Shown: one piece after another, positions 2,519 through 61,271 of the stretch
How positions within the stretch are numbered: position 1 is the first letter of the stretch
How the letters are laid out: each line of letters starts with the position of its first letter
Assembly (NCBI GenBank): GCA_020630095.1
Contig: JAHDCD010000001.1
Coordinates: forward strand, 133,698-197,697
Origin: Rickettsiales bacterium
Lineage (GTDB): Bacteria; Pseudomonadota; Alphaproteobacteria; Rickettsiales; UBA8987
Direction of reading: 5' to 3'
Length of the DNA stretch: 64,000 nucleotides
The notes under the pieces: generated by a model
Seen by the model: the letters and a program-made list of their open reading frames with translations, nothing else
What the model was told of the DNA's origin: nothing
The model's database searches: none
Position numbers and translations under genes: made by a program

Positions 2519-5500
2519 TTATCCAACTTCTAAAGTTTGATCTTGAGTCTCTACTCTAGCTGGTAGATCGCCATATTTTTCTTGAATTTCTTTTCCATTA
2601 TATGATGCGGCGAACCCTTTCCCTGTTTTTGTGTCTTCTGGGGAAATAACGGTTTCTACTTTTGCTTTATTGCCAACTATTGGCTGAGCGATAACAACCA
2701 TTTTTCCGTTCTCTTGAGTTTCTATCGGGTAAACGACTTTATGTTGTTCGGCTAAATCTTCATTAACTGTAAATGTTATAGATCCATCTTCATTTAAATT
2801 AACATGATCAGGGTGATAAAACACCACGGCATCCCCTGTAGGCTCTATTTTGCCATTTTTTCTGGCGCAAACATATTTAGTTTCACTATCTCGACTTTTA
2901 TCGGAGTTGTATTCTTTTATTGCATCCGCTTTTTGTTGTGTATTTGTGTTATCTTTAATACCAATTTTATCGCCTAAAGAGGTGCTTTTATATGTATCTG
3001 GCGCAGATGCTACAGGAGTTGGTGCATCTCTTCCTTCTTGTTCATTGCCCTCGATTGCGGATTCAATTGTATTTGGTGCGTTAAGCTCCTTGTCTGTTTC
3101 GGGTTCTTCTTCAATAGAATTATTTTTGCTAAGAATTTGCTCTCTATTTATACCTAGCTTCTTGGCTAATTTACTTTGAAGCTTTTCTAAAATATCTGGT
3201 TCGTAGATAGTTTCTTCCAATTTATTATCTAGGAAAGTATATGCTAATTCTTTTGATTCGTCCTCATTCTTACCTAGTTCTTTATATGTATTTACTAAGC
3301 TATCGAAGTTGTTTTTAAGATTTTCGTTAACTACCCTTAAGGCAATTTCATCTATTTTTTCTTCAAATCGTTCAATTCTTTCATCAAGTTGCCTTTTTTT
3401 ATCGTCTAAACTTGTCCAACCCCATTGAGTTGTTCCATGTAAGCTTTCTCTGCCTTTATCGGCTATTTTTTCTTTTATATCGTCTTTTCTTGCTTCAAGT
3501 TTTATTACTTTTTCTTCAAGCCTATTGGATTTTTTTTCTATATGTTTTTCTAATTTCTTTTGCGTTTTCTTTATCTCTTCTAAGGTGTCAACTGTGGTAT
3601 CAACTAATTTTTTAATGCCACCACCTTCACCGCGTAGGGTATCAAACTTGCCTTCTGTAAAGAAGTCATCTAATACGTCGCGAGTTGTATCGGCTTCTTG
3701 TGCTGTAGATATAACTTGTAAAACTTCTTTATAATCTTCTTCAAGTTCAGCTTGATCAATTCCAGAGTGAGATACTATATTTTCTAAAGTGTCCTTTGCG
3801 TATTGAATTGATTCTTCGGTATAGTTTTCGGCAACAAATTGGCTCTGTTCTAAATAGATACCTAGTGCGATGATATTCTTTTTATTACCATCTATTGCGC
3901 CTTTTCTTAATGGGCCGTCTTTAAATGTTCCGTTAAGTAGGTCGGACATTTGTTTATGAACGCCTATGTGAATTTTATTGCTTACCTTGAAGTCATAGTT
4001 ATTTTCATCCCAAGATCTTTCTAGCTTAATGCTTCTTGGGTAATATTCTCTTTCAGGCTCGTTATCTTCTAACTCAAGTTCATCACCGCCATCTATTGCT
4101 GGTGTAATATTTTCTGGATTATCTATAGAGCTTTCTGCTTTATCTAATGTGTCTAGATAAGGAGTTTCTTTATCTATAAATTTATTAAGTACTTTAGACC
4201 CAAGTTGAGTAAGTGCTGGAGCGGATAGGGTAAAGGCGCTGTAAGCGGCTAATGTTGCTGGGTATATTATAGGTGCTCCAAGTGTAGAACTTACTATACT
4301 TGCAGTTGCGCTGGTAAGTCCAAGTAGAGCTAGAGCTTCTCTTGGGGCTGTTTTAGGTCCCCATATTTTCGTTACGGCTATATCTATAGCTCTTTTTGTT
4401 TCGGCAAATCTTTCTTTAGGGCTTTTTCTATGAACATTCTCAGCAGTTAGTGTATCAACGTCTATATCCTCTGCATCTGCTGGAGTAGTTTCTTCTGTAG
4501 GTATCCCTGTAGTTTCGTTTGAATTTGCTTCAAGAGATTTGGAGGGTTTTCTTTTTTGACTTTCCTCTGGCGCGGGTGCGGGTGGAGCTGTAAGGGGTGT
4601 TATGGGCGCAGTAATAGGTTTTGTTTTTTGGTCGGGTAACTTCTCTATTTCGTCCTCTGCTTTTATAGCTGCAGGGGTAGCTTGCTCGTTAGCAAGTAGA
4701 TTCTCATTAACAACATTAAGTACCGCCTGAGATAAAGCTAATTCTTGCTCTTTTGATATACCATTTACGCTGAATGCACCAATAGCAGACATTACATCAA
4801 TATATTGAGCTATAGGTTTAAGTAACAATTCTATTTCTTTGGCTTTAGGAACATTATCATCATCAAATAGTTTTAATATTTGATTAGATATATTTTTTAT
4901 TTCTGTCTGTTTACCTGTTACATCTAGTGTTGAGCTTGTTGTAAATATGGTTAGTTCTTTTTTTTCCTCTTCTAATGCAGGCTCTTCTGTAAGAGGTTTA
5001 TCTTTTTTATTAAAAGGATTAAACTTTGAAAAGAAACTAGATTTATTGGGCTTAGTAATTTTATCAGGTTTTTCTGGGGCTTCATCAACTTCAAAAAAAG
5101 ATTTTTTTGGTAAAAACTTCGAAAGATGCTTTCCATCCGCATGATCAAATACGGCTTTTGCTTCTTCAGGAGATACAGTTTTAGGTTTGTTGGGTGATTC
5201 GTATTCAACGATTGGAAACTCACTACTTTTATACCTATCAGATGATAATGGTCTTCCGTCAATAAGGAGTCTATAGCTTTTATCTAATCCTGCTTCATCA
5301 ACGGCTTGATTGTAAAAAATTGATAAAACTTTTGTTAAATCAATATTATCGTTACTTAGTTCAATTATATTTCCAGTTCTATTTTTTAAGTTTTCTTTTA
5401 GCTTAGTTAATGTTTCTTCATATCTAATTCGTTTTGTTTGATCACCTTGGTTGTTTTCAAGGTCATCAGCAGCGATGTAAAACTCTTTTATAGTTTGATT

Positions 5501-5602
5501 AAGGCTAATTGCGTAATATGAAGCATCGCTTTGAGAAATGTCGCTAGAGAATGTAATGATGGTATCATTATATTCTGTTATGTTTGAATTATCTTCTGCC
5601 AT
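2519..5602 (-). CDS. Large acidic coiled-coil ORFan protein (1027 aa) with central bilobed hydrophobic segment
   Basis: Long uninterrupted ORF. Pro-rich linker PITAPITPLTAPPAPAPEE. Two adjacent hydrophobic helices at about residues 423-468 (4199..4336). Long Glu/Lys-rich heptad-like stretches. No recognisable enzymatic motif. Confidence 0.7.
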   Translation of the reverse strand: MAEDNSNITEYNDTIITFSSDISQSDASYYAISLNQTIKEFYIAADDLENNQGDQTKRIRYEETLTKLKENLKNRTGNIIELSNDNIDLTKVLSIFYNQAVDEAGLDKSYRLLIDGRPLSSDRYKSSEFPIVEYESPNKPKTVSPEEAKAVFDHADGKHLSKFLPKKSFFEVDEAPEKPDKITKPNKSSFFSKFNPFNKKDKPLTEEPALEEEKKELTIFTTSSTLDVTGKQTEIKNISNQILKLFDDDNVPKAKEIELLLKPIAQYIDVMSAIGAFSVNGISKEQELALSQAVLNVVNENLLANEQATPAAIKAEDEIEKLPDQKTKPITAPITPLTAPPAPAPEESQKRKPSKSLEANSNETTGIPTEETTPADAEDIDVDTLTAENVHRKSPKERFAETKRAIDIAVTKIWGPKTAPREALALLGLTSATASIVSSTLGAPIIYPATLAAYSAFTLSAPALTQLGSKVLNKFIDKETPYLDTLDKAESSIDNPENITPAIDGGDELELEDNEPEREYYPRSIKLERSWDENNYDFKVSNKIHIGVHKQMSDLLNGTFKDGPLRKGAIDGNKKNIIALGIYLEQSQFVAENYTEESIQYAKDTLENIVSHSGIDQAELEEDYKEVLQVISTAQEADTTRDVLDDFFTEGKFDTLRGEGGGIKKLVDTTVDTLEEIKKTQKKLEKHIEKKSNRLEEKVIKLEARKDDIKEKIADKGRESLHGTTQWGWTSLDDKKRQLDERIERFEEKIDEIALRVVNENLKNNFDSLVNTYKELGKNEDESKELAYTFLDNKLEETIYEPDILEKLQSKLAKKLGINREQILSKNNSIEEEPETDKELNAPNTIESAIEGNEQEGRDAPTPVASAPDTYKSTSLGDKIGIKDNTNTQQKADAIKEYNSDKSRDSETKYVCARKNGKIEPTGDAVVFYHPDHVNLNEDGSITFTVNEDLAEQHKVVYPIETQENGKMVVIAQPIVGNKAKVETVISPEDTKTGKGFAASYNGKEIQEKYGDLPARVETQDQTLEVG

Positions 5603-9330: not shown

Positions 9331-9843
9331 TTATCTTGTTGGTGTGGTTACTGGTTTAGCTGAAGCGCTTGGAGTTACTGGTTTAGCTTCTGCACTTGGT
9401 ACAGGAGTTGCTCTAGGGGGAACTGGTTCAGCTTGAAAGGGTGTTGCTTTATCTAACTTTACCTTTCCACGCTCGCCTTTTTTTAGTTCTTGTATAGCTA
9501 TTTCATCTAATTCAAGTTGTGCAGGTAATTTAAAAATTGAGTCTTTTTGTCCTGTTTCTTGCTCTCTGGCTGATGCTTGAATTAAAGCTGCTAGACCTGT
9601 TGCTAATTCATCTGCTGATGGCTTTCTTTCTTTGTGTAAAGATTTTAGAGGTTTGTTCTTTTCTTTATCCTCTGTTAATGGAGTTATAGATTCTTGATAT
9701 TTTACTCTATCCATTCGAGATTCTTGATCTCGTGAAAGGACGCCATTACCATAAAAATGGTGTTGTTGTGTTTTATCTTCAGGTTTGTTAAGAAGTTTTT
9801 CTAAAATTTCACTAAAAATATTATTATTTTTATTATCTGCCAT
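9331..9843 (-). CDS. ORFan protein (170 aa), Pro/Thr/Ala-rich repeated C-terminus
   Basis: ORF with the box promoter. C-terminus KPVTPSASAKPVTTP is encoded by a duplicated gttactggtttagct segment (9344-9387). Confidence 0.6.
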   Translation of the reverse strand: MADNKNNNIFSEILEKLLNKPEDKTQQHHFYGNGVLSRDQESRMDRVKYQESITPLTEDKEKNKPLKSLHKERKPSADELATGLAALIQASAREQETGQKDSIFKLPAQLELDEIAIQELKKGERGKVKLDKATPFQAEPVPPRATPVPSAEAKPVTPSASAKPVTTPTR

Positions 9844-16022: not shown

Positions 16023-17024
16023 ATGAAAAAGAATGTTATATTTATGGGGAGTCCTGATTTTGCGGTGCCAGCGTTGCAGGCTCTTATTGATGATTCCGGT
16101 ATAGAGGTTATTGCGTGTTTTTCTCAGCCGCCGCGTGAGGCTAATAGGGGGAAGAAAATCACTAAAACGCCTATTCATAAATTAGCAGAGGCGAATGATA
16201 TTGAAGTTCACACGCCTGTGAAGCTTAAAAACGTCATTCCTGCGTCTTATTTTGAATCTTTTAAGCATACGCAGGATGCGTCATTCGCCGACTTGATCGG
16301 CGAATCTAGAAATTGGACTATGGATTCGCCGATCAAGTCGGCGAATGACAAGTTAATTATTAAGGGTAATGTCACTTATATAAACTTGGTTGAATCTATG
16401 AAGCCGGATTTTATTTGTGTTGCGGCATATGGTTTAATATTACCAAAGAGCTTTTTAGACATTGCACCTTGTTTGAATATTCATCCATCTAAGTTGCCAA
16501 GATGGCGCGGTGCTGCGCCTATTCAGCGTACTATTATGGCAGGTGATACAGAAACTTCATGTTGTATTATGGATATGGATGTTGGATTAGATACTGGCGA
16601 TATTTTAATCGAAGAGGATTATAATATTCCGGCGAATTATACGGCGGGTGAATTGCATGATTACATGGCAAGTAAAGGTGGTGAGCTTTTATTAAAGGTA
16701 ATTGAAGGTTATAAAAATATTACTCCGCGTAAGCAATCGGAGCAGGGAGTTACGTATGCCCATAAAATTAAAAAATCTGATACTGAATTGAAGCTAGATG
16801 AGATTACGGCAGATGAAGCTAGAAATTTAATATTAGGTTTATCGCCGTATCCTGCGGCATGGGTTATGCATAATGAAAAACGTTTAAAGATATTAGCGTT
16901 ATCAAGTGAAGATGAAGGGGTTTCATTAGACTGTAAAGTTGGTTCTATTTATCCATCTTTAGTTCAGCCAGAGGGTAAAAAGCCAATGGATATAAAGGCT
17001 TATCTTAACGGCTTGCGTAGTTAA
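16023..17024 (+). CDS. fmt: Methionyl-tRNA formyltransferase carrying a 39-codon palindromic-element insertion
   Basis: FMGSPDFAVPALQAL..., AAYGLILPK, HPSKLPRWRGAAPIQRTIMAGD. The ATG directly follows the TAG of the ATPase gene. Confidence 0.9.
   Translation: MKKNVIFMGSPDFAVPALQALIDDSGIEVIACFSQPPREANRGKKITKTPIHKLAEANDIEVHTPVKLKNVIPASYFESFKHTQDASFADLIGESRNWTMDSPIKSANDKLIIKGNVTYINLVESMKPDFICVAAYGLILPKSFLDIAPCLNIHPSKLPRWRGAAPIQRTIMAGDTETSCCIMDMDVGLDTGDILIEEDYNIPANYTAGELHDYMASKGGELLLKVIEGYKNITPRKQSEQGVTYAHKIKKSDTELKLDEITADEARNLILGLSPYPAAWVMHNEKRLKILALSSEDEGVSLDCKVGSIYPSLVQPEGKKPMDIKAYLNGLRS
16233..16349. repeat. RPE-like palindromic elements (47 + 70 nt) inserted in frame in fmt
   Basis: 16233-16279: gtcattcctgcgt...acgcaggatgc. 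16280-16349: perfect 27-bp arms gtcattcgccgacttgatcggcgaatc / gattcgccgatcaagtcggcgaatgac. Total 117 nt = 39 codons. Confidence 0.8.
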
Positions 17025-19858: not shown

Positions 19859-20572
19859 CTACTTAATCAAAGTAAAATTACCTTCGCCATTTACGGCTTT
19901 ACCGAATGCGCCTTTATCGCGGATGCTAAATACGGATATTGGCATGTTATTATCGCGGGCGATTGCGATTGCTGCGCCGTCCATAACTTTTAAGTTTTTT
20001 TCTAGTACAGTTTTATAATCTACTTCTCCATAGCGCTTAGCATCTGGATTAGTTTTTGGGTCGCTACAATATACGCCATCAACTTGCGTGCCTTTTAATA
20101 GCATTTCACAGTTAAGTTCAACTGCACGAAGTGCGGCGGCTGAATCTGTTGTGAAATATGGGTTACCTGTACCTGCGGCGCAGATAATAATTCTACCGCG
20201 CTCCATGTGGCGTTTAGCGCGGCGACGAATAAATGGTTCGCAAACGGCATTCATAGTAATGGCTGAAAGAACGCGCGTTTCAACGTCCATTTTTTCTAAA
20301 GTATTTTGCAGAGCTATTGCATTCATAACAGTTGCTAGCATTCCCATGTAGTCTGCTGAGGCTCTGTCCATCCCTGCTTTTGCCATGGTTTGACCGCGAA
20401 AAATATTTCCACCGCCAACTACAATTGCTACTTCGTTGCCGGCATCTTTTACGGCTTTAATTTCTTCGCATATTATTTTTAATGTTGATAATGAATGGCC
20501 GAAGTCATCGTCACCCATTAAAGATTCGCCAGATAGTTTAAGTAGCACACGTTTCATAATAATTCTAGTCAT
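19859..20572 (-). CDS. pyrH: UMP kinase
   Basis: [35 protein letters not shown]. An alternative ATG lies at 20557. Confidence 0.95.
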
Positions 20573-20642
20573 GTCATTCCCGCGAAGGCGGGAATCTCAT
20601 AACAAGATTTTCAAGGGAGATTCCCGCCTTCGCGGGAATGAC
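20573..20642. repeat. RPE-like 70-nt palindromic element (intergenic, pyrH/serC)
   Basis: Perfect 24-bp arms gtcattcccgcgaaggcgggaatc / gattcccgccttcgcgggaatgac around a 22-nt loop. This is the source of the spurious SFPRRRES...RLRGNDN ORF 20436..20657. Confidence 0.85.
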
Positions 20643-20653
20643 AACATCTATCT

Positions 20654-21829
20654 TTAAGCAGCCTTACTTTCAGCTTCTGCTTTGATTTCTTCAAATGCCC
20701 ATTTTATCCAAGGCATAAGTGCTTCAATATCTGATGTTTCAACTGTTGCGCCACCCCAAATACGTAAGCCGGCAGGGGCATCGCGGTAAGCACCAATGTC
20801 GTAGGCTACGCCTTCAGCATCAAGAGCTTTAACAATTTGTTTTGCCTTAGCTTGCTGCTCTTCAACCGGTAAATTTGTATACCAGTCATCAGTTATTTTT
20901 AAGCAGATAGATGTTGTTGAGCGTTCATTCTCATTTTCTGCCAAAAATCCTAACCAATCAGAATTATCTGCAACAAAATCTTCAACGGCTTTTAAGTTTG
21001 CCGTTGAGCGTTTTATTAAGCCTTGTAAGCCGCCTTCGCTTTCTGCCCAGTTGCAGAAATCTAGCGCGTCTTCAACACATAGCATTGAAGGTGTGTTAAT
21101 TGTTGATCCCTCAAAAATACTTGCGTTTAATTTGCCACCTTTAGTTAAGCGGAAAATTTTTGGAAGAGGGCGGTCAGGTGCATAGCTTTCTAACCTTTCA
21201 ACTGCGCGCGGTGAAAGAATTAATATTCCATGCGCAGCTTCTGAGCCCATAACTTTCTGCCAAGAATATGTTAATACATCAATTTTGCTCCAGTCAATAT
21301 CCTGAGCTAACACACCAGATGTTGCATCGCAAATGGTTATGCCTTCGCGGTCGTTTGCTATCCAGTCTAGGTTAGGGCATTTAACACCAGATGTTGTACC
21401 GTTTAATGTGAATACGATATCACGCGTTTTTGTATCAACTTCTGCAAAGTTTGGTAGCACACCATAATCAGCTACGACAGTTTCTAAATTATCCAATTTT
21501 AATTGCTTCGCGGCATCCGTTACCCATGCTGAGCCAAAGCTTTCCCATGCAAGTACTGTAGTTGGTTTACAACCAAGCATTGACCACATTGCCATTTCTA
21601 CTGCGCCAGTATCCGATGCGGGAACAACACCTAAATGGTAACCCTCAGGTAGTTGTAATAATGCTTTTTGCTTTTCGATAACTTCTTTAAGTTTTTTCTT
21701 ACCGATTGATGACCTGTGAGATCTACCAAGGGCGGCATCACTTAATGCGTTCAAACTCCAGTTTGGACGTTTAGAAGTTGGACCAGATGAAAAGTTTGGA
21801 TTATTAGGTTTTACCGAAGGTTTAGACAT
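20654..21829 (-). CDS. serC: Phosphoserine aminotransferase (alphaproteobacterial long type)
   Basis: 391 aa. N-terminus [17 protein letters not shown] and a class V aminotransferase fold pattern. Confidence 0.85.
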
Positions 21830-21883
21830 GCAGTAATATTTAACAAGATGCCTAAATTATGCAATTATTCTTTATAATTAATT

Positions 21884-22148
21884 CAATTTTCTCAAATATA
21901 GAAAATCTTTTAAGTGTATAAATTTGAAAAAATAATATTTTAAGGGTGTTTTAGGTAGGAAATCCTTATATTTCAATGTATCGCGTTATATTTAAGGCAA
22001 AATAAGTATAAAAAAATGGTAAAAAACGTTCATTTTTTTACGTTTTTTAAGCAAAAACCTGAATTTTTATTGAGGAGATTTACTTTTTGAAGGTGGATTA
22101 ACGATGTAATTAAAATATATAGCCGAGTTTATTTACTGGAAGAGGGGA
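21884..22148. repeat. Dispersed ~260-bp non-coding repeat, copy R1
   Basis: Collinear blocks shared with 52541..52797: aattttc..aatatagaaaat, aaaaaataatattt, cttatatttcaat, tataaaaaatggt, aaaaaacgttca...cgttttttaa, acgatgt, ggaag. Confidence 0.6.
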
Positions 22149-22150
22149 AT

Positions 22151-22417
22151 TATAGTCTTTTCTAATTTGCAAAATAGTCATTTTGTAAATTATTGTTGGT
22201 TAAGTAGATTTCCTTAACAGTCAATCTACTTAACATTCGCCGCGCTACGCTTGCGCAACATAAGGGCGTGCTAGCCCTTATGTTGATAGTAAAACAATTA
22301 ATTTCCTGCGGAAATCTAATTAGTTTACTATAGGTTCATTGCTTCGCAATGCAAAACCAGCTCAAGTTGGTTTTGATAGTAAATCCCAATTTATTACATA
22401 AATTAGAATTTACTATA
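22151..22417 (+). repeat. MITE-like hairpin-array element, long copy (U_L)
   Basis: Outer end tatagtcttttctaattt, inner end ttagaatttactata. Contains at least 7 consecutive stem-loops. Inverted homologue of 22970..23078. Confidence 0.6.
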
Positions 22418-22873
22418 TTACCTTGGTAATGTAGGGGGGCTAACCTCATTCTTAATCAATTTTAGATCAATACTTTTTCCACCAACCTCAGGTTTAGGTC
22501 TTTGATGAGCATCAGCTCTAATACTACCTAATACTATACTTAAATGATCCATAGAAGTTAACTCTTCACGAATCTGGGTTAAAGTTTCTGAAACTTTTTG
22601 AACTATAGGTACCCCCGCTTTTTCTAGGTTTTTAAGATCAGATAATTTAAATTCCAGTTTTAGATGTTTTTCGCCAATATTTTGATAATCAATACCTAGT
22701 GGCTCGAGCTCCTCTTCAACGATGGCTATACTTTCTTCGTTTTCAAATTCAAAAACAAAGGTATCACCACCATTAAGTTCCATAGCCCTATCTTTTGCCC
22801 ATTGTGGAACGATAACTTTTGAGGATAAAAAGGCTTCTTGTGCATCAGTAGAGAATATTTGAGCTTCTGTCAT
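22418..22873 (-). CDS. Acidic ORFan protein (151 aa)
   Basis: ORF with a box promoter, bracketed by the inverted U elements. No recognisable motif. Confidence 0.6.
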   Translation of the reverse strand: MTEAQIFSTDAQEAFLSSKVIVPQWAKDRAMELNGGDTFVFEFENEESIAIVEEELEPLGIDYQNIGEKHLKLEFKLSDLKNLEKAGVPIVQKVSETLTQIREELTSMDHLSIVLGSIRADAHQRPKPEVGGKSIDLKLIKNEVSPPTLPR

Positions 22874-22880
22874 ATAAAAA

Positions 22881-22913
22881 ACCCTACAATATAATAATTA
22901 AAAAAACGTTAAC
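22881..22913 (-). promoter_or_regulatory. CtrA-type box plus -10, predicted leaderless promoter of ORF 22418..22873
   Basis: Plus strand 22898-22913 is TTAAaaaaacgTTAAC. In gene orientation: TTAA, 11 nt, TAGGGT (22886-22881), 7 nt, ATG 22873. Confidence 0.5.
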
Positions 22914-22950
22914 AAAAAAGGCGGCTCTAAATTAATAAAGCCGCCTTTTG
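22914..22950 (-). terminator. Rho-independent terminator of groESL
   Basis: Minus strand reads aaaaggcggc-tttattaatttaga-gccgcctttttt followed by a T run. It sits directly before the next gene's box. Confidence 0.6.
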
Positions 22951-22969
22951 ATAATTAGGTTCTTTAAAG

Positions 22970-23078
22970 TATAGTAAATTCTAATTTACTATCAGAATAA
23001 GCTTGAGCTTATTCTGCGCCGCGAAGCGAGCGAGCCTAATTTACACGCCAACCGGCGTGTAAATTATAAAAGACTATA
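22970..23078 (-). repeat. MITE-like hairpin-array element, short copy (U_R)
   Basis: Minus strand reads tatagtcttttataattt-[acacgcc ggtt ggcgtgt]-...-[agaataag ctcaag cttattct]-gatagtaaattagaatttactata. Starts 6 nt after the groEL stop. Confidence 0.6.
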
Positions 23079-23084
23079 GACTTA

Positions 23085-24764
<1,680 letters not shown>

Positions 24765-24776
24765 TTATGTTATTAT

Positions 24777-25049
24777 TTATGCTACTTTAGCAATAATATC
24801 TGATTGGTTAAAAATTAAGTGCTCTGTACCTTCAATATCAATTTCAGTACCACCCCATTTAGCGATTAATACTGTGTCGCCTTCTTTAACGTTCATAGGC
24901 TCATCTTTTGTGCCCTCGCCAACAGCTGTAACAATAGCTTTGTTTGGCTTTTCTTTTGCGTTATCTGGAATGATAATGCCAGATGCTGTTTTAGTCTCTT
25001 CAGCTTCTCTTTTTACTAATACGCGGTTGCCTAATGGAATTACTTTCAT
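24777..25049 (-). CDS. groS: Co-chaperonin GroES
   Basis: 90 aa. PLGNRVLVKREAEETKTASGIIIPD mobile-loop pattern. AGGAG Shine-Dalgarno. Confidence 0.95.
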   Translation of the reverse strand: MKVIPLGNRVLVKREAEETKTASGIIIPDNAKEKPNKAIVTAVGEGTKDEPMNVKEGDTVLIAKWGGTEIDIEGTEHLIFNQSDIIAKVA

Positions 25050-25116: not shown

Positions 25117-25194
25117 GTAATAAGTAATATATAGTGAGATATACCTTTTGGTGTGGCAATAATATGGGTTATTAATGGCTTAATTTCAAGTGTG

Positions 25195-28017
25195 ATGAAT
25201 AAATTTTTTATAAAAATCCTTAGTTTAATTTGTGTGGTTTCTATTATTTTAACCACAAGCCCCGAGTTTGGAAGGGCGAACGAGTATTTTGACTACGATA
25301 CTGTTAGTAGAAATAATACTAATCCTAGGCTTATTCAAGCTGCGGCATATGGTAATATTGCAATTGTAGAGCAAGAGTTGTTGGCAGGTGCAAATGTTAA
25401 TATGATAGGTGTGTCGGGTACAACGGCATTAATGCAGGCTGCGTATAATAACGACTTTGAAATGACTGAGTTTTTAATTCAGTCGGGTGCTAGCCTTGAC
25501 CAACGTGATAGAAATCAACGTACGGCGGCGGAATATGCGGCGGCGGCTGACAATGTGCGTATGATAGAGCTTTTAGGTGCGTATGGTGCGGATATTGATA
25601 AATTTATAGTAGGAAAAACAGATTATGGCAGTTTATTATATACAACATTAGGTGTTGTAGCTGTTTTAGCGGCTGCGGGTGCTTTAGGTACAGATGGAGA
25701 GCCGGAAGATTCTACTGGCGGTGGTGGTACAACGCCAACTGTTCCTACGCCAGACCCAGGAACTGGCGGTTCAACGCCAACTGGGAATGTGGTTATTCCC
25801 GTTGCTCCGGAATCTGGAACGGCCTCAACATTTGAAGACACTGAATATGGAACTTCTGGTGCGCATGCCATTGTAAATGCCTCAGCAGCTTATGCGCGTG
25901 GTTATGATGGCTCTGTATTTACTCGTGATGCTGATGGTGCAAACCCTGTATTGGATGCATCTAAGGCTGTTAGGGTTGCGGTAATTGATGGTGGCATTGA
26001 TATTCATCATACAGATTTAGACGATAATTTAGCTACAACAGGCGCTAGGTGTTTAACATCGGGGTGCTTTGGTGATGGTGATGCTAGTGCATCCGAAGAT
26101 AATCATGGTACATTAGTTTCTTCATTAATTTTAGGTGAAGATAATAATTCCGGTGCAATGGGTATTGCGCCTGATGCAAAATTAATTCCTATCAATGCAA
26201 TTACGGCGGGTGGCTCAACTTCACGTGCGTTTGCTCATGCGGTGGGTAATGGCGCAGATATTATTAATAATAGTTGGGGTATTACAGATTTAGCTGGTAG
26301 AGAGGTGTATATTGCTGGCAATTCTACCGCAGCGGATGCTCAAGCCGCATTTAGTGGTGAAAATCAATTTAATGGTATTACGGATGGCGTTAACAATGGC
26401 TCTGTATTTGTATTTGCTACAGGTAATAGTGGTAATTCTGAACCGAATATAGTTGCTGGCTTACCTTTCTATTTTAATGGTGCGGCTAATAATGGTATCA
26501 ATACTTCAAATGTAGATTTACGTAATAATTGGATTGCAGTTGGTGCGTATAGCGCATCTGGTACGAATAATTTAGCATCGTTCTCTAATGCTTGCGGTGT
26601 GGCTAAAGATTGGTGTTTAGTTGCCCCTGGTTCTAGCTTAACGGGTGCGGCTAATGGTGGTGCAACTACTGGGTCATCGGCTACAACATCTGAAACTGGT
26701 ACAAGTTTTGCGGCGCCTGTAGTTTCTGGTGCATTGGCAGTTGTAATGGGTGCGTTCCCGCATTTATCAACTGAGCAGGCGGCTAGTATTTTGTTACAAA
26801 CGGCTACAGATTTAGGTCCGGCGGGTGTTGATGAATTTACGGGGCATGGTTTATTAAATTTAGATTCTGCAACTACACCAGGTGGTTCATTTGTTGTACC
26901 TACGGGCGGTAGTGCAGGTGTTTCACAATTTAGTGCAACGGGTACGGGGTTGGCATTTGGTAGAGCTTCAGCCAGTGCAGTTGGTTCGGAGAACAAGTTA
27001 ATGGTTATAGATTACCTTGGGCGTAATACATATATTGATGTGAATGATTTTACTTCATCTAGCAATGAGCGCTCAGAAAGCGTGAATGATTTATATAATA
27101 AATTCTCTAACAATCCTGATATTGAATTTAACGATGGTAAAACGGAATTTACATTAACAACGCGTTTACAGAATCGTGATGAGCTTGATAGATTTTCAGA
27201 GGAAGATTTACAAGGTTTCCAATATAAAGAGCAATTAAACAAGAAGACTAAGGTGGGTTTTGCCTATAACATGCCAGTTGATAATTCTGGCATTGGTTTG
27301 AATCAGTCTGATAATATACTTAGTTTAGCTGAGAAAGGGTATTCAGCTTCAATTGAAGGGCAGGGCTATAAGTTAGGTTTATTCAATGGGGAGTCACTTG
27401 ATAATGAAGATATTAAGTCTTCAGGTATTTATGTGGAGCAGGATATTGCTAAAAATATTTCATTCATTGGTGGTATTATTAATGAAGAGAATAGTTTTGT
27501 AGGTAATGCATCTTCTGGTGCATTGGAAGTTGGTGAGGATAATATTACTGCATTTTATGGTTTGAAAGGTGGTTATGATTATTCACCGAATCTTTCATTT
27601 AACGCGGAAGCTATTTTAGCTAATACGGAGCTTTCGGATGCTCCAACGAGTTCATTGGTTAATGGTGCTAGTGACATTATGTCGTCGTCATTCAAGCTTG
27701 GTGCGGCGTATAATGGTTTATTTAAAGCTAATGATAATTTCTCTTTAAACATTGCTCAGCCGTTAAAGGTAGAGCAGGGTACGCTTAATATTGCTACGCC
27801 AACATCTATTTCGGCTGATGGTTCTATTGGTTATGAGAATGATAATTTAAACTTAGCTTCAGATGCTAGGCAGGTGGATTTAGGTTTTGATTATAACCTA
27901 AACTTTGGTCTTGGTACTTCATTAAAAGCGGGTGCTATATTAAAAATGAATCCTAATCATTCATCGGATTACGAGAATGAATCGACAGGCTTCATAAGAT
28001 TGCAGCATAATTTCTAG
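25195..28017 (+). CDS. Ankyrin-repeat / subtilisin-like (S8) serine protease autotransporter
   Basis: Signal peptide MNKFFIKILSLICVVSIILT. About 3 ANK repeats (25321..25602), then a hydrophobic helix and a Gly/Thr/Pro linker. S8 triad contexts VAVIDGGID, HGTLVSS, GTSFAAPVVSG. C-terminal beta-barrel ending LQHNF. The ORF extends to a GTG at 25153. Confidence 0.8.
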   Translation: MNKFFIKILSLICVVSIILTTSPEFGRANEYFDYDTVSRNNTNPRLIQAAAYGNIAIVEQELLAGANVNMIGVSGTTALMQAAYNNDFEMTEFLIQSGASLDQRDRNQRTAAEYAAAADNVRMIELLGAYGADIDKFIVGKTDYGSLLYTTLGVVAVLAAAGALGTDGEPEDSTGGGGTTPTVPTPDPGTGGSTPTGNVVIPVAPESGTASTFEDTEYGTSGAHAIVNASAAYARGYDGSVFTRDADGANPVLDASKAVRVAVIDGGIDIHHTDLDDNLATTGARCLTSGCFGDGDASASEDNHGTLVSSLILGEDNNSGAMGIAPDAKLIPINAITAGGSTSRAFAHAVGNGADIINNSWGITDLAGREVYIAGNSTAADAQAAFSGENQFNGITDGVNNGSVFVFATGNSGNSEPNIVAGLPFYFNGAANNGINTSNVDLRNNWIAVGAYSASGTNNLASFSNACGVAKDWCLVAPGSSLTGAANGGATTGSSATTSETGTSFAAPVVSGALAVVMGAFPHLSTEQAASILLQTATDLGPAGVDEFTGHGLLNLDSATTPGGSFVVPTGGSAGVSQFSATGTGLAFGRASASAVGSENKLMVIDYLGRNTYIDVNDFTSSSNERSESVNDLYNKFSNNPDIEFNDGKTEFTLTTRLQNRDELDRFSEEDLQGFQYKEQLNKKTKVGFAYNMPVDNSGIGLNQSDNILSLAEKGYSASIEGQGYKLGLFNGESLDNEDIKSSGIYVEQDIAKNISFIGGIINEENSFVGNASSGALEVGEDNITAFYGLKGGYDYSPNLSFNAEAILANTELSDAPTSSLVNGASDIMSSSFKLGAAYNGLFKANDNFSLNIAQPLKVEQGTLNIATPTSISADGSIGYENDNLNLASDARQVDLGFDYNLNFGLGTSLKAGAILKMNPNHSSDYENESTGFIRLQHNF

Positions 28018-28030
28018 AATATTTTATAAA

Positions 28031-28223
28031 GCGAACGAATGTGAGTGGTGGGGGCAGAGGGCCTTAGCGGCTATGCCGCCATTTAATAATACAAGTACAT
28101 CTGTACCTAATACGAACGAATGTGAGTGGTAGGGGCAGAGGGCCTTAGCGGCTATGCCGCCATTTAATAATACAAGTACATCTGTACCTAATACGAACGA
28201 ATGTGAGTGGTAGGGGCAGAGGG
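28031..28223. repeat. 81-bp tandem repeat re-copying the 3' end of tRNA-Met
   Basis: Units begin at 28032, 28113 and 28194 (period 81). Each contains tggt(a/g)ggggcagaggg, the complement of the tRNA 3' end CCCTCTGCCCCTACCA, plus the same 65-nt spacer with hairpin gcggc-tat-gccgc. Confidence 0.85.
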
Positions 28224-28284
28224 ACTTGAACCCCCGACAAAGACGTTATGAGCGTCCTGCTCTAACCAACTGAGCTATGCCCCT
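28208..28284 (-). tRNA. tRNA-Met (anticodon CAT; elongator type, or possibly tRNA-Ile2)
   Basis: Manual cloverleaf: AGGGGCA-TA-GCTC-AGTTGGTTA-GAGC-A-GGACG-CTCATAA-CGTCT-TTGTC-GGGGG-TTCAAGT-CCCTC-TGCCCCT-A-CCA, 77 nt. Confidence 0.85.
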
Positions 28285-28379: not shown

Positions 28380-29339
28380 GTGGTTCAATTTTATGAATTA
28401 AATAGAGAAGGGCGCCTAGAATTGGTTGATTCAAAGAAGGATTTCAATCGAGGTGATAACGTGCTTTTATACCTTGGCCCTATAGAGGCTAGTTCAGATA
28501 ATAAAAATCAGCATATAGGAGGGATTAAGGTACTAAGGGATATTATAGGTGAGGATGTTATAAATAGCAGGGGGCTTAGATTGGTGTCTTTTCCTTATGA
28601 AGATATTAGTCAAAATAGTCTAAATTTTAACTGCTATAGGATGGAAAGAGATTCTTATTGTTCATTAGAGGCAAAAGAGTTGTTTGAGGCTTTACAATCT
28701 ATGACAGAATTCGGAAGCTCAGTTTCAATTGCAGCGCACAGTTATGGTACATCGTTTTTTGCTCAAATGGTTAATGGAAATAGATTTAAGCAAGGTGAGG
28801 GTTTAGAGGTAATACCAAGAATTTTTACTGGTACTGTAGTTCAATTAGGGCATGTGGAGCAAATGAAGGGTGATACTTTAGCAATGTATGGTATGAATGA
28901 TAAGGTGCTTGAGAATAGAGGTGTTTATCTAGATTCATATTTCAATATGGATACAGAGCTTGAAATATTAGATAAGGGCAATTCTGTTATGGTTGCAGGA
29001 ATGATTCCTACGAAAATTAATTTCTTTCGAGGAGGTGGGGGTGATTTGCGATATGAGAAGCATAAAGGGCTTAAAGATCATGAGGCGCATATTTTACCTG
29101 CGTATGTCTCTGCTGGAGCGGGTTGTGAGTTAGAAGTTGGTAACCCTGTAGAAACACCAATAAGCTATGCGTATAAGAATGCTTTAATTAATATGGTTCT
29201 AGGGCGGAGCCTTTCAGTGGATTCGTTGGCTTATTCAGATTTTCATTCTAAGTCACCTGAAAAGGCTGTTCCATCAGTTTATGCCCAACAAATGGAGTTG
29301 AGGGTGATGCAGGCTGTGGATAGAATGAATGGTATATAG
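28380..29339 (+). CDS. ORFan protein with possible alpha/beta-hydrolase (lipase/esterase) nucleophile motif
   Basis: 319 aa. AAHSYGTSF resembles a G/A-x-S-x-G nucleophile elbow. Later candidate Asp (GMNDKV) and His (KDHEAH). GTG start. Confidence 0.45.
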   Translation: MVQFYELNREGRLELVDSKKDFNRGDNVLLYLGPIEASSDNKNQHIGGIKVLRDIIGEDVINSRGLRLVSFPYEDISQNSLNFNCYRMERDSYCSLEAKELFEALQSMTEFGSSVSIAAHSYGTSFFAQMVNGNRFKQGEGLEVIPRIFTGTVVQLGHVEQMKGDTLAMYGMNDKVLENRGVYLDSYFNMDTELEILDKGNSVMVAGMIPTKINFFRGGGGDLRYEKHKGLKDHEAHILPAYVSAGAGCELEVGNPVETPISYAYKNALINMVLGRSLSVDSLAYSDFHSKSPEKAVPSVYAQQMELRVMQAVDRMNGI

Positions 29340-40621: not shown

Positions 40622-40651
40622 AAAAAGGCGGCTTATTAGTCGCCTTTTTTA
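40622..40651 (+). terminator. Rho-independent terminator
   Basis: aaaaaggcg-gcttattagt-cgccttttttatt. Confidence 0.7.
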
Positions 40652-47427: not shown

Positions 47428-48034
47428 CGAAAAGAAAAAATACTCTACCTCAGATGTACTAGAAAATCTTGTAATTGAAACTAAGCAGCAAGATAAAGTT
47501 TCAATTGGCGAGCTTAAAATGCTCTTAAAGGATAGAGGGTTCGATATCTTAATGATAATCGCTGCACTACCAATGTGCATACCTATTCCTGTACCTCCAG
47601 GTTACACAACATTCTTTTCAATCCCTTTATTTATATTCGCATGGCAAATGTTAATGGGATCACGCAGTGTATGGTTACCCAAATGGATAAATAAAAAAGA
47701 AATTAAACGTACTACAGCCGGTTTGCTGGTAGAAAAAGCCAGCCCTAGCCTTCGCTTTATTGAGCGCTTCTCAAGGCCTCGGGCGTTATGGATGCTTAGT
47801 AAACAAACAAGGCGAATACTGGGATTCATAGTAATGGTACTAACAGTATCTATTGCCCTACCCTTACCACTAACAAACCTGCTTCCGGCATGGGGCATAG
47901 TAATTATGTGCATAGGCTCTTTAAACCGCGATGGCTTACTAAGCTTAATCGGGGTACTTATTGGAATTGCAGGCGTGGCCGTTACCCTTTTGGTCCTTTA
48001 TGGTGGCGTTGAGTTAATAAATTCAATTTTTTAA
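47420..48034 (+). CDS. exoD: ExoD-family exopolysaccharide synthesis membrane protein
   Basis: SIGELKMLLKDRGFDILMIIAALPMCIPIPVPPGYTT and the multi-TM ExoD pattern. Confidence 0.75.
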   Translation: MSDEKKKYSTSDVLENLVIETKQQDKVSIGELKMLLKDRGFDILMIIAALPMCIPIPVPPGYTTFFSIPLFIFAWQMLMGSRSVWLPKWINKKEIKRTTAGLLVEKASPSLRFIERFSRPRALWMLSKQTRRILGFIVMVLTVSIALPLPLTNLLPAWGIVIMCIGSLNRDGLLSLIGVLIGIAGVAVTLLVLYGGVELINSIF

Positions 48035-48062
48035 CGTTTTTTTAACAATTTTATAAGATAAT
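48031..48062 (+). promoter_or_regulatory. CtrA-type box plus -10, predicted leaderless promoter of ORF 48069..49355
   Basis: TTAAcgtttttTTAAC (48031-48046; the first TTAA contains the exoD stop codon); GATAAT (48057-48062) lies 11 nt after the proximal TTAA; then 6 nt to ATG 48069. Confidence 0.55.
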
Positions 48063-48068
48063 AAGCCT

Positions 48069-49355
48069 ATGTCTAACTACACAGATATAAGCAAGCTAAA
48101 GTTAATTCCTTTAAGAGGTGCCTTTCCAGAAAATGTACTAAAACTTACTTGGAATGAAATTCTTCAAACCTTTAATCCAACTCTATCTACTGAAAATTTT
48201 CAAGCCAGAGCTAAGGATAATAATGACATGGTTGACCTAGAAGCCTTAGTTATAGATATTAATGGTCGTGAAATAAACATATTTAAGAGAGCAAAGAGTG
48301 ATCCTCAAATTCAAGGTATTAACGAAAATCAAGTAATTATTTACATTACAGAATCTGATAGAGATCATATTTTAGAGAACACACACTCTGTAGAAAACTT
48401 TACTAGAATAGACTTTTCGGGGAAAAGAGGAAAGGTAACTGAGGGTATGCATTCACTTAAAAATGCCATTAGAGAGCAAATTCCTGAACAAAGAAATGAA
48501 TCCCCAATCTATACATTTAAAGAGGAAGGGCAAGCAACGAAAAAACTAAGAAAATTTAAATTTAAATTTGAAGGAAAAATTTACAACTATTACAATACAC
48601 AGGCTCAAGATAAAGAAACTTTATTTGCTAATGCTCACTTTGAAGCTGAACAGGCTAACGAAATAGAAGGAAAAATAGCCGAAATAGATTCACCTAAAGA
48701 AAGCAATGGTAAGAAAAGCGAGGCTTCACATAACGATGAAAAAATTATTCCGGCTTCAAAAATAATAAAACAACCCCAAAAAGTACGTTTTCACTTCTTA
48801 AATATCCTTGCGAATAGTGCAATTAAAAGAGATAGCGAGGGCGTGAAAAATCCAGATTATGGCTCAGGAAAATATTCTCAATGTTATTTTATTACCAATG
48901 AAGGAGCACAAATAGCCTTTACCGCTAAATTAAATCAAACAAAAAGGGCTTTAATATACATAAAAGAAAGTCAACAAAGCGATTTCCTTTCTCTCTATGA
49001 AGCTTATGAAGAGGCCTTCACAAAAGAGGGAGATGGCATAAGGAAAGAAAATGCAAATAGACGTAAGTATAATCTTAACCCTGAAAACGCCGATGAAAAA
49101 ACACTTATCACGGATGAAGAAAAAATAGCACGATGTAAAAGGGCTGGAATGAATGGCTTACTAGGAGAAATAGATAAAGAGGCAACTTCAGCATATAAAA
49201 AAACCAATGATATCCGCGACATACCGAGCAACAGTAAACCTAAGTTGCAAAAAGAGGGTGTTCAAATAGTCGCCAAAGCACCGGCAAAACCCTCTCAACA
49301 GCCAACAAGAGTTGTTGAAGCTCCAAAAACTGAAAATCAACTACAACAAGGCTAA
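48069..49355 (+). CDS. Lys/Glu-rich ORFan protein (428 aa)
   Basis: Long ORF with the box promoter. No signal peptide or recognisable motif. Confidence 0.65.
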   Translation: MSNYTDISKLKLIPLRGAFPENVLKLTWNEILQTFNPTLSTENFQARAKDNNDMVDLEALVIDINGREINIFKRAKSDPQIQGINENQVIIYITESDRDHILENTHSVENFTRIDFSGKRGKVTEGMHSLKNAIREQIPEQRNESPIYTFKEEGQATKKLRKFKFKFEGKIYNYYNTQAQDKETLFANAHFEAEQANEIEGKIAEIDSPKESNGKKSEASHNDEKIIPASKIIKQPQKVRFHFLNILANSAIKRDSEGVKNPDYGSGKYSQCYFITNEGAQIAFTAKLNQTKRALIYIKESQQSDFLSLYEAYEEAFTKEGDGIRKENANRRKYNLNPENADEKTLITDEEKIARCKRAGMNGLLGEIDKEATSAYKKTNDIRDIPSNSKPKLQKEGVQIVAKAPAKPSQQPTRVVEAPKTENQLQQG

Positions 49356-49789: not shown

Positions 49790-49822
49790 AATCCGTTTTG
49801 TATGACGGATTATTATATTTTT
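49790..49822 (+). terminator. Possible terminator hairpin
   Basis: atccgt-tttgtatg-acggat followed by tattatattttt. Confidence 0.35.
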
Positions 49823-50033
49823 AATGCGGGTAGTTGGCTGCCCCGCCGCGAGTAGCGGCAATTAAATAATCACTCAGCCATTTATACAATGAGTGTTATT
49901 TTATTTTTTAAATTATCTCTACGGAATAATTTATTAACGCGGGTAGTTGGCTGAGTGCCCCGCGCCGTACAGGCGCAATCGAATAGTTCGAGCACTCAGA
50001 CAACTTTTTGTTGTTTTATATTATCTTAAATGC
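49823..50033 (+). repeat. Two pseudo-copies of the tRNA-Ser 5' end with embedded GC hairpins
   Basis: aatgcgggtagttggctg at 49823 and aacgcgggtagttggctgagtg at 49936 copy the tRNA 5' flank plus positions 1-12 and 1-16. Each continues with cccc-hairpin-aa (gccgc gagta gcggc / gcgcc gtaca ggcgc). Confidence 0.8.
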
Positions 50034-50123
50034 GGGTAGTTGGCTGAGTGGTCGAAAGCACTAGTCTTGAAAACTAGCGAGGGGGCAACTCCTCCGGGGG
50101 TTCGAATCCCTCACTGCCCGCCA
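50034..50123 (+). tRNA. tRNA-Ser (anticodon TGA)
   Basis: GGGTAGT acceptor stem, D arm GCT/AGC, anticodon arm CTAGT-CTTGAAA-ACTAG, long variable arm GAGG...CCTC, T arm GGGGG-TTCGAAT-CCCTC, ACTGCCC-G-CCA. 90 nt. Confidence 0.9.
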
Positions 50124-50297: not shown

Positions 50298-50876
50298 ATG
50301 AAGCTAACGGACATTAAAATAAAATCTATTAAACCACCTATAGATAAAGCAAAGGAATCTTATGTAGATGGAGACGGCTTGCGTTTGATTGTAACTAACA
50401 AAGGCGGTAAATACTGGGAGTTTCGATATACCTACAACAACAAGCCAGACTCGCTTAATCTTGGTAAATATCCACATATTAGCCTTGCAGATGCACGAGA
50501 GAAGCGAAATGAGTTTAAAAAGCAGCTTGCTCACGGTGTAGACATTAAAGCCAATATTAGACAAGAGAAGCAATCTAAAGCTCTATCTGATGCTATTACC
50601 TTTGAAGTTATCGCTAGAGAGTGGCACGAGAAGAAACGCGAAGAATGGACAGAAAGGCACTCTAAATACGTTCTAAGACGCTTAGAAGCCGATTTATTCC
50701 CTGCTATTGGTTCAATGCCCATTAATACAATTACTACCGTAGACTTCTTAAACGCTCTTAGGGTAGTAGAAAAGCGAGGTGCATACGATATTACAAAGCG
50801 TATGCGTCAGACAGGTGGGCAGATATTCCGCTACGCTGTTGCAACTGGTAGAGCCGAGCGAGATAGCCAACTGTAA
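50298..50876 (+). pseudogene. Truncated P4/CP4-57-type tyrosine integrase (N-terminal arm-binding and core-binding part only)
   Basis: LTDIKIKSIKPP...DGDGLRLIVTNKGGKYWEFRY (DUF4102-like) and the SAM-like region up to ATGRAERD, then SQL-stop. The catalytic domain is absent. Lies 175 nt downstream of tRNA-Ser. Confidence 0.8.
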
Positions 50877-52540: not shown

Positions 52541-52797
52541 GAATTTTCCAGAATATAGAAAATTTATTTTATTCTAAAAATTTTAAAAAATAATATTTAG
52601 AGGCTGGAATCTAAAAAAATCTTTATATTTCAATAGACCTTAGGATTTATCCTATAAAAAATGGTTTAAAAAACGTTCAAAAATGGGCGTTTTTTAACAA
52701 AAAATGACGATTTTTTTAATAAAATCATACATTCCTTTTTGGTTATTCACGATGTTGAGTTGATATTATCACGTAGAATATACTCCGGAAGTGATGT
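52541..52797. repeat. Dispersed ~260-bp non-coding repeat, copy R2
   Basis: Same ordered sequence blocks as 21884..22148, in direct orientation. Contains the conserved hairpin aaaaaacg...cgtttttt. Confidence 0.6.
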
Positions 52798-57604: not shown

Positions 57605-57678
57605 GGCCCGGTAGCAAAGTGGTAATGCAGGGGATTGCAAATCCTCGATCGTCGGTTCGATTCCGTCCCGGGCCTCCA
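57605..57678 (+). tRNA. tRNA-Cys (anticodon GCA)
   Basis: GGCCCGG acceptor stem, 3-bp D stem, anticodon arm GGGGA-TTGCAAA-TCCTC, T arm GTCGG-TTCGATT-CCGTC (one U-U mismatch), CCGGGCC-T-CCA. 74 nt. Confidence 0.8.
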
Positions 57679-57952
57679 TAAGGATTAGTTTTCCTTTATA
57701 TATTTTATCAGATTTTCATTTGATTGCGACTGCTCGCCGCGGGGCGTCGGTTCGATTTCGTCCCGGGCCTCCATAAGGATTAGTTTTCCTTTATATATTT
57801 TATCAGATTTTCATTTGATTGCGACTGCTCGCCGCGGGGCGTCGGTTCGATTTCGTCCCGGGCCTCCATTTTCTTTCTTTTGAAGTTTTTAATATATCGG
57901 CTTGTATAGCAGTTGTTTCTAGTGGGCGTTGGTTTGAGTTCGTCCTGAGTCT
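57650..57952 (+). repeat. 95-bp tandem repeat re-copying the 3' end of tRNA-Cys
   Basis: cgtcggttcgatt(c/t)cgtcccgggcctcca occurs at 57650 (the real tRNA), 57745 and 57840, with an identical 66-nt spacer. A degenerate fourth copy lies at 57924-57952. Confidence 0.85.
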
Positions 57953-58325: not shown

Positions 58326-58358
58326 ATTATACAAGTAGTTTATTAAAATAAGGTTAAT
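58326..58358 (-). promoter_or_regulatory. CtrA-type box (near-perfect) plus TATAAT, predicted leaderless promoter of ORF 58014..58319
   Basis: Plus strand 58343-58358 is TTAAaataaggTTAAt and overlaps the zapE stop codon. In gene orientation: TTAA, 11 nt, TATAAT (58331-58326), 6 nt, ATG 58319. Confidence 0.5.
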
Positions 58359-61233: not shown

Positions 61234-61271
61234 AATTGACTTAAGTCTATATTCTTCAATTATCTTAATCA

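Follow-up and report, generated by a model that had tools for sequence, protein, structure and literature searches.

The groEL-serC Locus

The window analysed here is a stretch of 64,000 nt (64 kb) from contig JAHDCD010000001.1 of a Rickettsiales bacterium, with a G+C content of 37.5%. Between groEL and serC it carries two arrays of short hairpins, a short element of 109 nt and a long element of 267 nt, which are homologues in inverted orientation and which enclose an orphan open reading frame (ORF) of 151 aa, referred to below as the ORFan. All the genes of the neighbourhood are encoded on the minus strand, including the four around the elements (groES/groEL, ORFan, serC). The features of the locus, in the direction of its genes, are the following.

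24777-25049, minus strand: groES
23085-24746, minus strand: groEL, the upstream gene, with unit S in its 3′ untranslated region (UTR)
22970-23078, minus strand: short element (unit S)
22916-22949, minus strand: terminator-like hairpin
22418-22873, minus strand: ORFan, 151 aa
22151-22417, plus strand: long element
20654-21829, minus strand: serC, phosphoserine aminotransferase gene, the downstream gene

An AT-rich spacer of 321 nt separates the serC start from the outer end of the long element. The terminator, the CtrA-type box and the ORFan, which the initial annotation of this DNA had placed between the two elements, are all present there. The best matches of GroEL are alphaproteobacterial with an identity of at most 74%, and the best identity of SerC is at most 71%, which means that the host is a deep-branching alphaproteobacterium without a close sequenced relative.

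Boundaries, Ends and Modular Construction of the Elements

The inverted homology proposed for the two elements was confirmed by a repeat search, which returned three arm pairs: a core pair of 56 nt (22341-22396 with 22972-23027, 75% complementary), an inner-end pair of 19 nt (22399-22417 with 22970-22988, perfect) and an outer-end pair of 21 nt (22151-22171 with 23058-23078, 90% complementary). TATAGT is the exact start of all four element ends, and the sequence flanking them is unrelated. Each element indeed has the imperfect terminal inverted repeats that had been ascribed to it, of the form TATAGT-N5-CTAATTT ... AAATTAG-N5-ACTATA; outer and inner termini match at 13/18 positions, and the outer ends of the two elements agree at 17/18. 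The pattern TATAGTCTTTTNTAATTT, with up to 3 mismatches, has 6 matches in the window against 1.66 expected, and as four of the six are the element termini, the terminal inverted repeats are not a product of chance. TA stands at all four tips and belongs to the inverted repeat itself; beyond it, no longer direct repeat flanks either element, and only TA flanks the whole 928-bp unit. The termini are as follows.

22151-22168, plus strand: outer terminus of the long element, TATAGTCTTTTCTAATTT, with TA at the tip
23061-23078, minus strand: outer terminus of the short element, TATAGTCTTTTATAATTT
22400-22417, minus strand: inner terminus of the long element, TATAGTAAATTCTAATTT, 13/18 match to the outer terminus
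22970-22987, plus strand: inner terminus of the short element, TATAGTAAATTCTAATTT, same as that of the long element over 19 nt

In a global alignment, the long element equals unit S with two additions, a 139-nt block between the hairpins H1 and H2 and a 19-nt tandem inside H4. The 139-nt block ends in ...TTAGTTTACTATA, and the unit 22151-22332 to which it belongs itself ends in ...TTTACTATA. Its hairpin order mirrors that of S (AT-rich, small GC, CA...TG, then ATAGTAAA...TTTACTAT). Since the block ends like a unit and repeats the order of S, the simplest parse is a complete unit, Ea, followed by a truncated one, Eb. The single 267-nt element of the initial annotation is therefore right in its homology to the short element, but it is better divided into Ea (182 nt) and Eb (85 nt). 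On this simplest parse there are three units at two sites, all inside a stretch of 930 bp.

22970-23078, minus strand: unit S, complete, 109 nt, 6 nt past the groEL stop and ahead of the terminator
22151-22332, plus strand: unit Ea, complete, 182 nt, with both termini (TATAGTCTTTTC ... TTAGTTTACTATA) and five hairpins, H1 22163-22192, Ha 22199-22234, Hb 22238-22255, Hc 22256-22285 and Hd 22286-22331
22333-22417, plus strand: unit Eb, 5′-truncated, 85 nt, head-to-tail with Ea and abutting the ORFan stop codon, with the hairpins H2 22337-22351 (TTC loop), H3 22352-22375 (CTCAAG loop) and H4 22376-22416

Unit S consists, in order, of TATAGTCTTTTA, H1, H2, H3, H4 and a final A, where H1 has 13 bp, H2 is a small GC hairpin with a TTC loop, H3 has 10 bp and the loop CTCAAG, and H4 has 9 bp (ATAGTAAAT/ATTTACTAT). 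In Eb, H4 is longer because the terminal 19-mer is present there twice in tandem.

The two sites are separated by 552 nt and both lie directly 3′ of stop codons, 6 nt past that of groEL and 0 nt past that of the ORFan; the short copy is placed between the groEL stop and the terminator, i.e., in the 3′ UTR. Together with the sharp TATAGT...ACTATA bounds, this position bears out the suggestion of discrete REP- or MITE-like elements in 3′ UTRs (REP, repetitive extragenic palindrome; MITE, miniature inverted-repeat transposable element). The units are non-coding and, at 109, 182 and 85 nt, fall within the size of bacterial MITEs (less than ~300 bp). The only ORF of at least 40 aa that touches the elements is a 46-aa frame at 23036-23176 overlapping the groEL end. 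When either element is removed and one TA is left, the sequence reads as a compact stop-to-terminator layout.

Folding, Covariation and Divergence

Thermodynamic folding was compared with that of shuffled controls. The short element folds as RNA with −45.1 kcal/mol (z = −7.4; z = −9.5 as DNA) and the long element with −91.7 kcal/mol (z = −9.6; z = −12.8 as DNA). The minimum-free-energy and centroid folds are arrays of local hairpins, four in the short element and eight in the long one. In a sliding scan, the two elements and two unrelated REP dimers (see below) are the most structured spots of the 64 kb.

For covariation, S was aligned with the long copy minus its two extra blocks over 109 columns and the four-hairpin structure. 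All 36 of the 36 pairs are standard in both copies, with eight double changes, three single changes via G-U and no broken pair, while pairing falls to 36-40% when the partners are slid by 1-3 columns. The probability that all 11 changed pairs stay standard by base composition alone is ~2 × 10⁻⁵. A third unit adds one further independent double change in H3, again with no pair broken. The covarying hairpins reported initially thus stand, with two amendments. The hairpin H1, beside the outer end, had been missed and covaries as well (TAATTTGCAAAAT/ATTTTGTAAATTA vs TAATTTACACGCC/GGCGTGTAAATTA; four double changes), and the TTC-loop hairpin of the short copy is imperfect, as it requires a bulged T and otherwise has only four pairs including one G-T.

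The termini carry 1 mismatch in 41 positions and the core 27 in 68 (Fisher p = 7 × 10⁻⁶), which corresponds to a core divergence of ~40%; over the shared 109 nt the identity is 74%. Within the core, unpaired and paired columns differ equally often (8/20 and 19/48, respectively). The conserved loop of the initial annotation holds for the TTC and CTCAAG loops, to which loop conservation is limited, but not for the unpaired core columns at large.

The stems are almost wholly Watson-Crick. There are four strand-asymmetric pairs, which in the long element are G-T on the plus strand in H1 and H3 and two G-U on the minus strand in H4. Because these pairs split evenly, the transcribed strand is not singled out, and strand-specific RNA selection was dropped on the ground that two asymmetric pairs favour each strand. 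With such stems and such a split, an explanation at the DNA level fits equally well, and the compensatory changes, which the initial annotation took to argue for a selected structure, do not prove selection on an RNA structure.

These data show that complementarity was maintained through ~40% core divergence, the cause of which two or three sequences do not identify. The pairing kept despite this divergence, with ends far better conserved, argues for a hairpin-dependent constraint; therefore, some process acting on hairpin formation constrained the elements. Quasi-palindromes undergo templated correction, and this process is a candidate cause along with recognition of the DNA hairpins and ends by a mobilising enzyme, such as a transposase, and selection on the RNA. 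Other roles of the hairpins were dropped: as terminators, since no T-runs lie 3′ of the element hairpins; as integron attC sites, since the elements are inverted and their ends are without the GTTRRRY core; and as a replication origin or terminus, since there is no turn of the GC skew at the locus.

Searches for Further Copies

A covariance model (R1), for which unit S and the matching part of the long element served as input, tolerates different stems; unit S scores 130.8 bits to it. No copy was found in the 64-kb window outside 22151-23078 by blastn at word size 7. The inner-end 19-mer has 29 matches in 185,579 species-representative genomes, a set that does not include the source genome; all are chance matches in unrelated contexts, and the two in Rickettsiales metagenome-assembled genomes lie within coding sequence. 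In the JGI metagenomes, the outer end with the H1 base gave 0 matches, and the loop core CA-N6-GCTCAAG-N8-GATAGTAAAT gave six, none with complementary stems. Viral contigs returned either a flood of chance matches or none, and the element was not matched in plasmids and phages. In Rfam 15, only the three tRNAs of the window reach gathering scores and no family covers the element; in E-value mode over 21800-23200, the best match is L20_leader with 34.9 bits against a gathering score of 58.7.

The Orphan ORF, Its Upstream Region and the Probable Terminator

The ORFan has no homologue in 5.8 billion clustered proteins, nor in 1.84 billion representatives searched exhaustively with phmmer, and no match in Pfam, NCBIfam, PHROGs, PADLOC or PDB sequences. 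Its AlphaFold2 model, made without an alignment, is unreliable (predicted local distance difference test score 44), and the impression of an AbrB/MazE-like N-terminal motif was given up as no support for it was found. The ORFan has a codon score of 0.32 in frame, inside the range of annotated genes (0.22-0.67), both shifted frames are strongly negative as in real genes, and its G+C content at third codon positions is typical. At least eight other long ORFs of the window are without a Pfam match, e.g., 2519-5602, 9331-9843, 28380-29339 and 48069-49355, which means that orphan genes are normal in the host lineage.

Upstream of the ORFan, a TTAA-N7-TTAAC sequence (CtrA-type box) lies at 22898-22913 on the plus strand and overlaps a minus-strand promoter-like site, TTGTTA-16-TATATT, running from 22915 to 22888. 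The window holds 11 such boxes where 2.5 are expected, all of them intergenic, including upstream of groES; examples start at 5637, 9868, 22898, 25085, 28342, 45119, 48031, 49386 and 54270. This enrichment suggests a CtrA-like regulon in the host. The native codon usage and the host-type CtrA box make the ORFan look resident, and it is probably a real, host-regulated gene of the host and not recent cargo; it is not demonstrably part of the repeat.

Downstream of unit S, the terminator-like hairpin at 22916-22949 on the minus strand (AAAAGGCGGCT...AGCCGCCTTTT followed by TTTTTTG; −21.8 kcal/mol, z = −5.8) is the likely groESL terminator. An AT-rich motif around AAAAACGTT forms weak intergenic hairpins at 22009-22048 and 52666-52697, and also at 22899-22916 and 48027-48054, and could be terminator-like or regulatory.

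The Slot behind groEL in Relatives

The closest SerC-bearing (71%) and GroEL-bearing (72-74%) contigs show neither the groEL-serC adjacency nor the element. In the former, serC lies beside a giant ORF and rpmI-rplT-pheS, and in the latter other genes follow groEL. One relative (contig L169, 7645-7815) has a structured insertion of ~110 nt between groEL stop and terminator (z = −7.6), which is not homologous to the element, and another (L168, 8530-9305) has an IS5-type DDE transposase gene downstream of groEL. It seems that passengers of this sort accumulate in the space that follows groEL. A covariance-model match of 20.2 bits in contig L153 was rejected as plain coding sequence.

Exact look-ups of the ORFan and GroEL sequences returned no contig. 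The only contig from public reads with this serC is a 1.7-kb unitig (L001), which corresponds to window positions ~20615-22360 and ends on both sides inside hairpin loops, namely the Eb H3 loop (~22360) and the loop of a REP dimer (~20615). These breaks probably reflect hairpins or coverage; they could come from assembly breaks, repeats or heterogeneity. Reads of this organism are present in run SRR14415274, on which a literature search gave nothing.

A protein of 954 aa encoded at 25153-28017, divergently from groES, has ankyrin repeats at its N terminus and a subtilase (S8) domain. Large ankyrin proteins are also encoded on the contigs of relatives, which hints at a host-associated lifestyle.

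Comparison with Known Systems

In their ends, the units come closest to the Correia elements (CREE/NEMIS) of Neisseria, and in body and position to mosaics of the REP/BIME type (BIME, bacterial interspersed mosaic element). Bacterial MITEs typically have 5′-TA-3′ termini and structured transcripts (PMC2229807). Correia elements start with TATAG[CT]G, target TA, fall into short and long classes and hold a −10 sequence in their first six bases (PMC2649163). The present units share with them the TATAGT start, the ACTATA end and the TA tips, as well as a length of ~105 nt, longer variants with internal blocks, and an intergenic, presumably co-transcribed position next to genes (PMC2649163, PMC2229807). 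However, the identity stops after six bases, where Correia elements continue with GGATTAA and the present ends with CTTTT or AAATT; the Correia terminal repeat TATAG[CT]GGATTAA(CAAAAA/ATTTAAA) is thus not matched beyond TATAGT. Correia elements fold into one long terminal-repeat stem that is cleaved by RNase III and are dispersed in more than 100 copies per genome of Neisseria, whereas here the fold is one of 4-5 independent short hairpins, only three clustered units are known, and the host is an alphaproteobacterium.

REPs lie mostly downstream of ORFs, and their stem sequence varies within a family (PMC3733652). Likewise, the units here are mosaics of short perfect palindromes whose stems differ between subsets with the structure kept (PMC3733652), and they are located downstream of ORFs, between co-directional genes. 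They differ from REPs and BIMEs in that GTAG, CGTC and TGTC tags are missing in front of all the hairpins in the three units, that the array has terminal inverted repeats of its own, and that a high copy number is not seen in the window.

Rickettsia palindromic elements (RPEs) are famed for in-frame insertion into genes. An insertion of that type does occur in the window, but it belongs to another (REP) repeat family and not to the units described here, which are all intergenic. The resemblance to RPEs and to the CIR repeats of Caulobacter lies in their being lineage-specific alphaproteobacterial palindromic repeats of 100-150 nt, with 5′ and 3′ parts that fold independently in the case of CIR (PMC2229807); the sequences, however, are not similar, and Rfam gives no match.

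The TA at the termini and the imperfect inverted repeats recall RUP and other MITEs mobilised by IS630, and suggest an IS630/Tc1-mariner-type transposase that duplicates TA (PMC2229807). A matching insertion sequence or transposase was not found among the window ORFs screened against Pfam. In mobile insertion cassettes and in composite transposons bracketed by MITEs, inverted transposase-less elements flank a passenger gene. The two inverted element copies at the ends of the ORFan resemble this arrangement, but they are diverged and of unequal length, and there is no sign that the unit ever moved. Elements derived from IS200/IS605 have same-orientation subterminal hairpins, an associated Y1 transposase and no terminal inverted repeats (PMC3333891). 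This palindrome-associated class was rejected, as terminal inverted repeats are present and the ORFan has no match to Y1_Tnp or any other Pfam or NCBIfam entry. The units are filed as small intergenic palindromic repeats, a broad known kind, within which no named family fits.

Possible Origins of the Elements

We read the elements as a lineage-specific palindromic repeat of the MITE/REP kind that entered TA sites in two adjacent 3′ UTRs, a reading that we consider about evenly balanced between right and wrong. Their ends are MITE-like and their body is REP/BIME-like, a string of short hairpins and not one foldback. Non-autonomous insertion elements, or relics of them, would have entered the TA sites of the two neighbouring 3′ UTRs independently: unit S behind the groEL stop but ahead of the native, GC-rich terminator of groEL, and Ea/Eb directly after the ORFan stop, with a partial tandem duplication later at one site. 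On this view the ORFan between them is independent of the repeat, a resident gene whose promoter region with the CtrA box is its own. Ends that do not vary and that are inverted copies of each other suggest that an enzyme recognises them, and the TA tips, by analogy with RUP/IS630 and Correia elements, may point to a TA-duplicating transposase. The units would be transcribed along with groESL and the ORFan and, like REP and Correia elements, would serve there as hairpin barriers at the 3′ end or as substrates for RNase. A TTGATA-16-TATAGT site at 22948-22975 scores 10/12, is among the best promoter-like sites of the region and is directed antisense into groEL; as in Correia elements, the TATAGT tip could be used as a −10 hexamer.

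Several observations weigh against this reading. A mobile repeat is defined by its dispersal, and this is not seen here: 930 bp contain all three units, and there is none in the remaining 63 kb. Even with filters off, the best window match of the covariance model outside the locus reaches 12.4 bits (E = 0.85). By our estimate, such clustering is mildly improbable under independent insertion (~3-7%). Relatives of the element are absent from the representative genomes, JGI metagenomes, viral contigs, plasmids and phages searched, and the Pfam screen of the window ORFs, with four long ones at 58354-63248 unscreened, revealed no transposase. The elements lack the single long stem-loop through the terminal repeats that is a classical trait of bacterial MITEs, and the TA "duplication" is indistinguishable from the inverted repeat itself. 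Finally, we infer mobility from the anatomy and the barrier or RNase role from the position, and any function in the transcript purely so.

The same clustering is what would be expected if the units were restricted to this locus and had never been mobile. In that case, an ancestral hairpin array in the groEL-serC spacer gave rise on the spot to one inverted and one tandem duplicate, and was kept for its use to the host, e.g., in stabilising 3′ UTRs in the manner of REPs/BIMEs or in insulating the transcripts of groESL, the ORFan and serC from one another. With all units within 930 bp, none elsewhere in the 64 kb or in the public collections searched, a tandem duplication visible in the 19-mer repeat and in the head-to-tail Ea-Eb pair, pairing kept despite 40% core divergence and both sites 3′ of stop codons, this origin is the strongest of the rivals, although we consider it rather less likely than the first. 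Simple duplication leaves the four exact TATAGT ends and the inverted unit ends unexplained, however; near-invariant termini beside 40% diverged cores are the signature of recognised ends, and the four strand-asymmetric pairs show no preference for the transcribed strand.

The initial annotation also considered that the elements could be the ends of a mobilisable cassette, in which they bound a 928-bp unit (22151-23078) and the ORFan, promoter and terminator are passengers. The inverted orientation, outer ends alike at 17/18 positions and TA at both outer tips would suit it, as would an orphan passenger without a homologue in 1.84 billion representatives, and excision of the whole unit also leaves a plausible groEL 3′ region. 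We regard it as unlikely nonetheless. Old and unequal, the two ends share 74% identity over 109 nt and differ further by the 139- and 19-nt blocks; codon usage and G+C content of the ORFan are host-like and the CtrA box is of host type; the GC-rich terminator stands at the expected groESL terminator site and resembles the one at 40622-40649; and Pfam-less ORFs are not unusual, with at least eight others in the window. As no second copy, empty site, informative target duplication or transposase was found, the cassette is left unsupported, though not refuted. A related but bolder proposal, which we judge to be quite unlikely, is a new class of structure-defined mobile DNA in which an enzyme specific for hairpins or ends recognises the TATAGT termini plus any perfect stem, and an inverted pair of units could capture and move the ORFan; if true, it would explain free stem sequences with strict pairing. 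Least probable, and in our opinion very doubtful, is an invertible segment, in which a recombinase crossing over at the perfect 19-nt inner repeats flips the 552 bp with ORFan, promoter and terminator. A perfect 19-nt inverted repeat does bracket a promoter and gene, and the break of the public-read unitig of the same organism in the long element (~22360) could reflect heterogeneity; but the unitig also breaks in an unrelated hairpin (~20615), the repeats do not stand alone but form the tips of larger elements that are homologous, and recombinases are missing from the surroundings of the locus, with a truncated phage integrase 27 kb away as the single find in the window.

Should the repeat of the MITE/REP kind prove to be dispersed in the source genome, it would be a new lineage-specific entry in the catalogue of bacterial MITE/REP-like elements, unusual in joining TA-tipped terminal repeats to a BIME-like hairpin string and in keeping its pairing through heavy turnover. 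The placement in the 3′ UTR of groESL, among the most highly expressed operons, could affect the stability of the chaperonin mRNA. Current ideas stay intact, since it is common to find small palindromic repeats behind genes, and variable stems inside one such family are already on record.

Other Repeats in the Window

Two REP dimers unrelated to the elements were found. The fmt ORF (16023-17024) has an in-frame insertion of ~46 aa relative to E. coli Fmt, at 16230-16385 of the window (core 16278-16351); in the alignment to 1fmt, query residues 4-69 correspond to chain 5-69 and query residues 122-295 to chain 76-252. The core of the insertion is a head-to-head, CGTC-tagged REP hairpin dimer, CGTC-ATTCGCCGA-CTTGA-TCGGCGAAT. 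It is an RPE-like in-frame palindromic repeat and fits the CGTC kind of REP of Di Nocera et al. 2013. The second dimer, at 20571-20644 (TGTC-ATTCCCGC-GAAG-GCGGGAAT), is of the same REP kind, has perfect arms of 27 nt and takes up the intergenic stretch from the serC stop to the pyrH start. Paired GANTC sites are present in both dimers. A genuine CGTC-type REP family in the same window sets a precedent for palindromic repeats in this genome.

All three tRNA genes of the window have tandem partial duplicates of one end with its flank (57650-57869, 28027-28227 and 49810-50046). The 3′ end of tRNA-Cys is repeated with a 95-nt period in 2.3 copies that are 99% identical, the 3′ end of tRNA-Met with an 81-nt period in 2.4 copies, and the 5′ start of tRNA-Ser has three occurrences. 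Repeated rounds of integration and excision may have left these duplicates as scars. The tRNA-Ser gene (50034-50123) is immediately followed by the truncated phage-type integrase (50298-50876, 192 aa), which has the arm-binding and central domains only and is without the catalytic domain.

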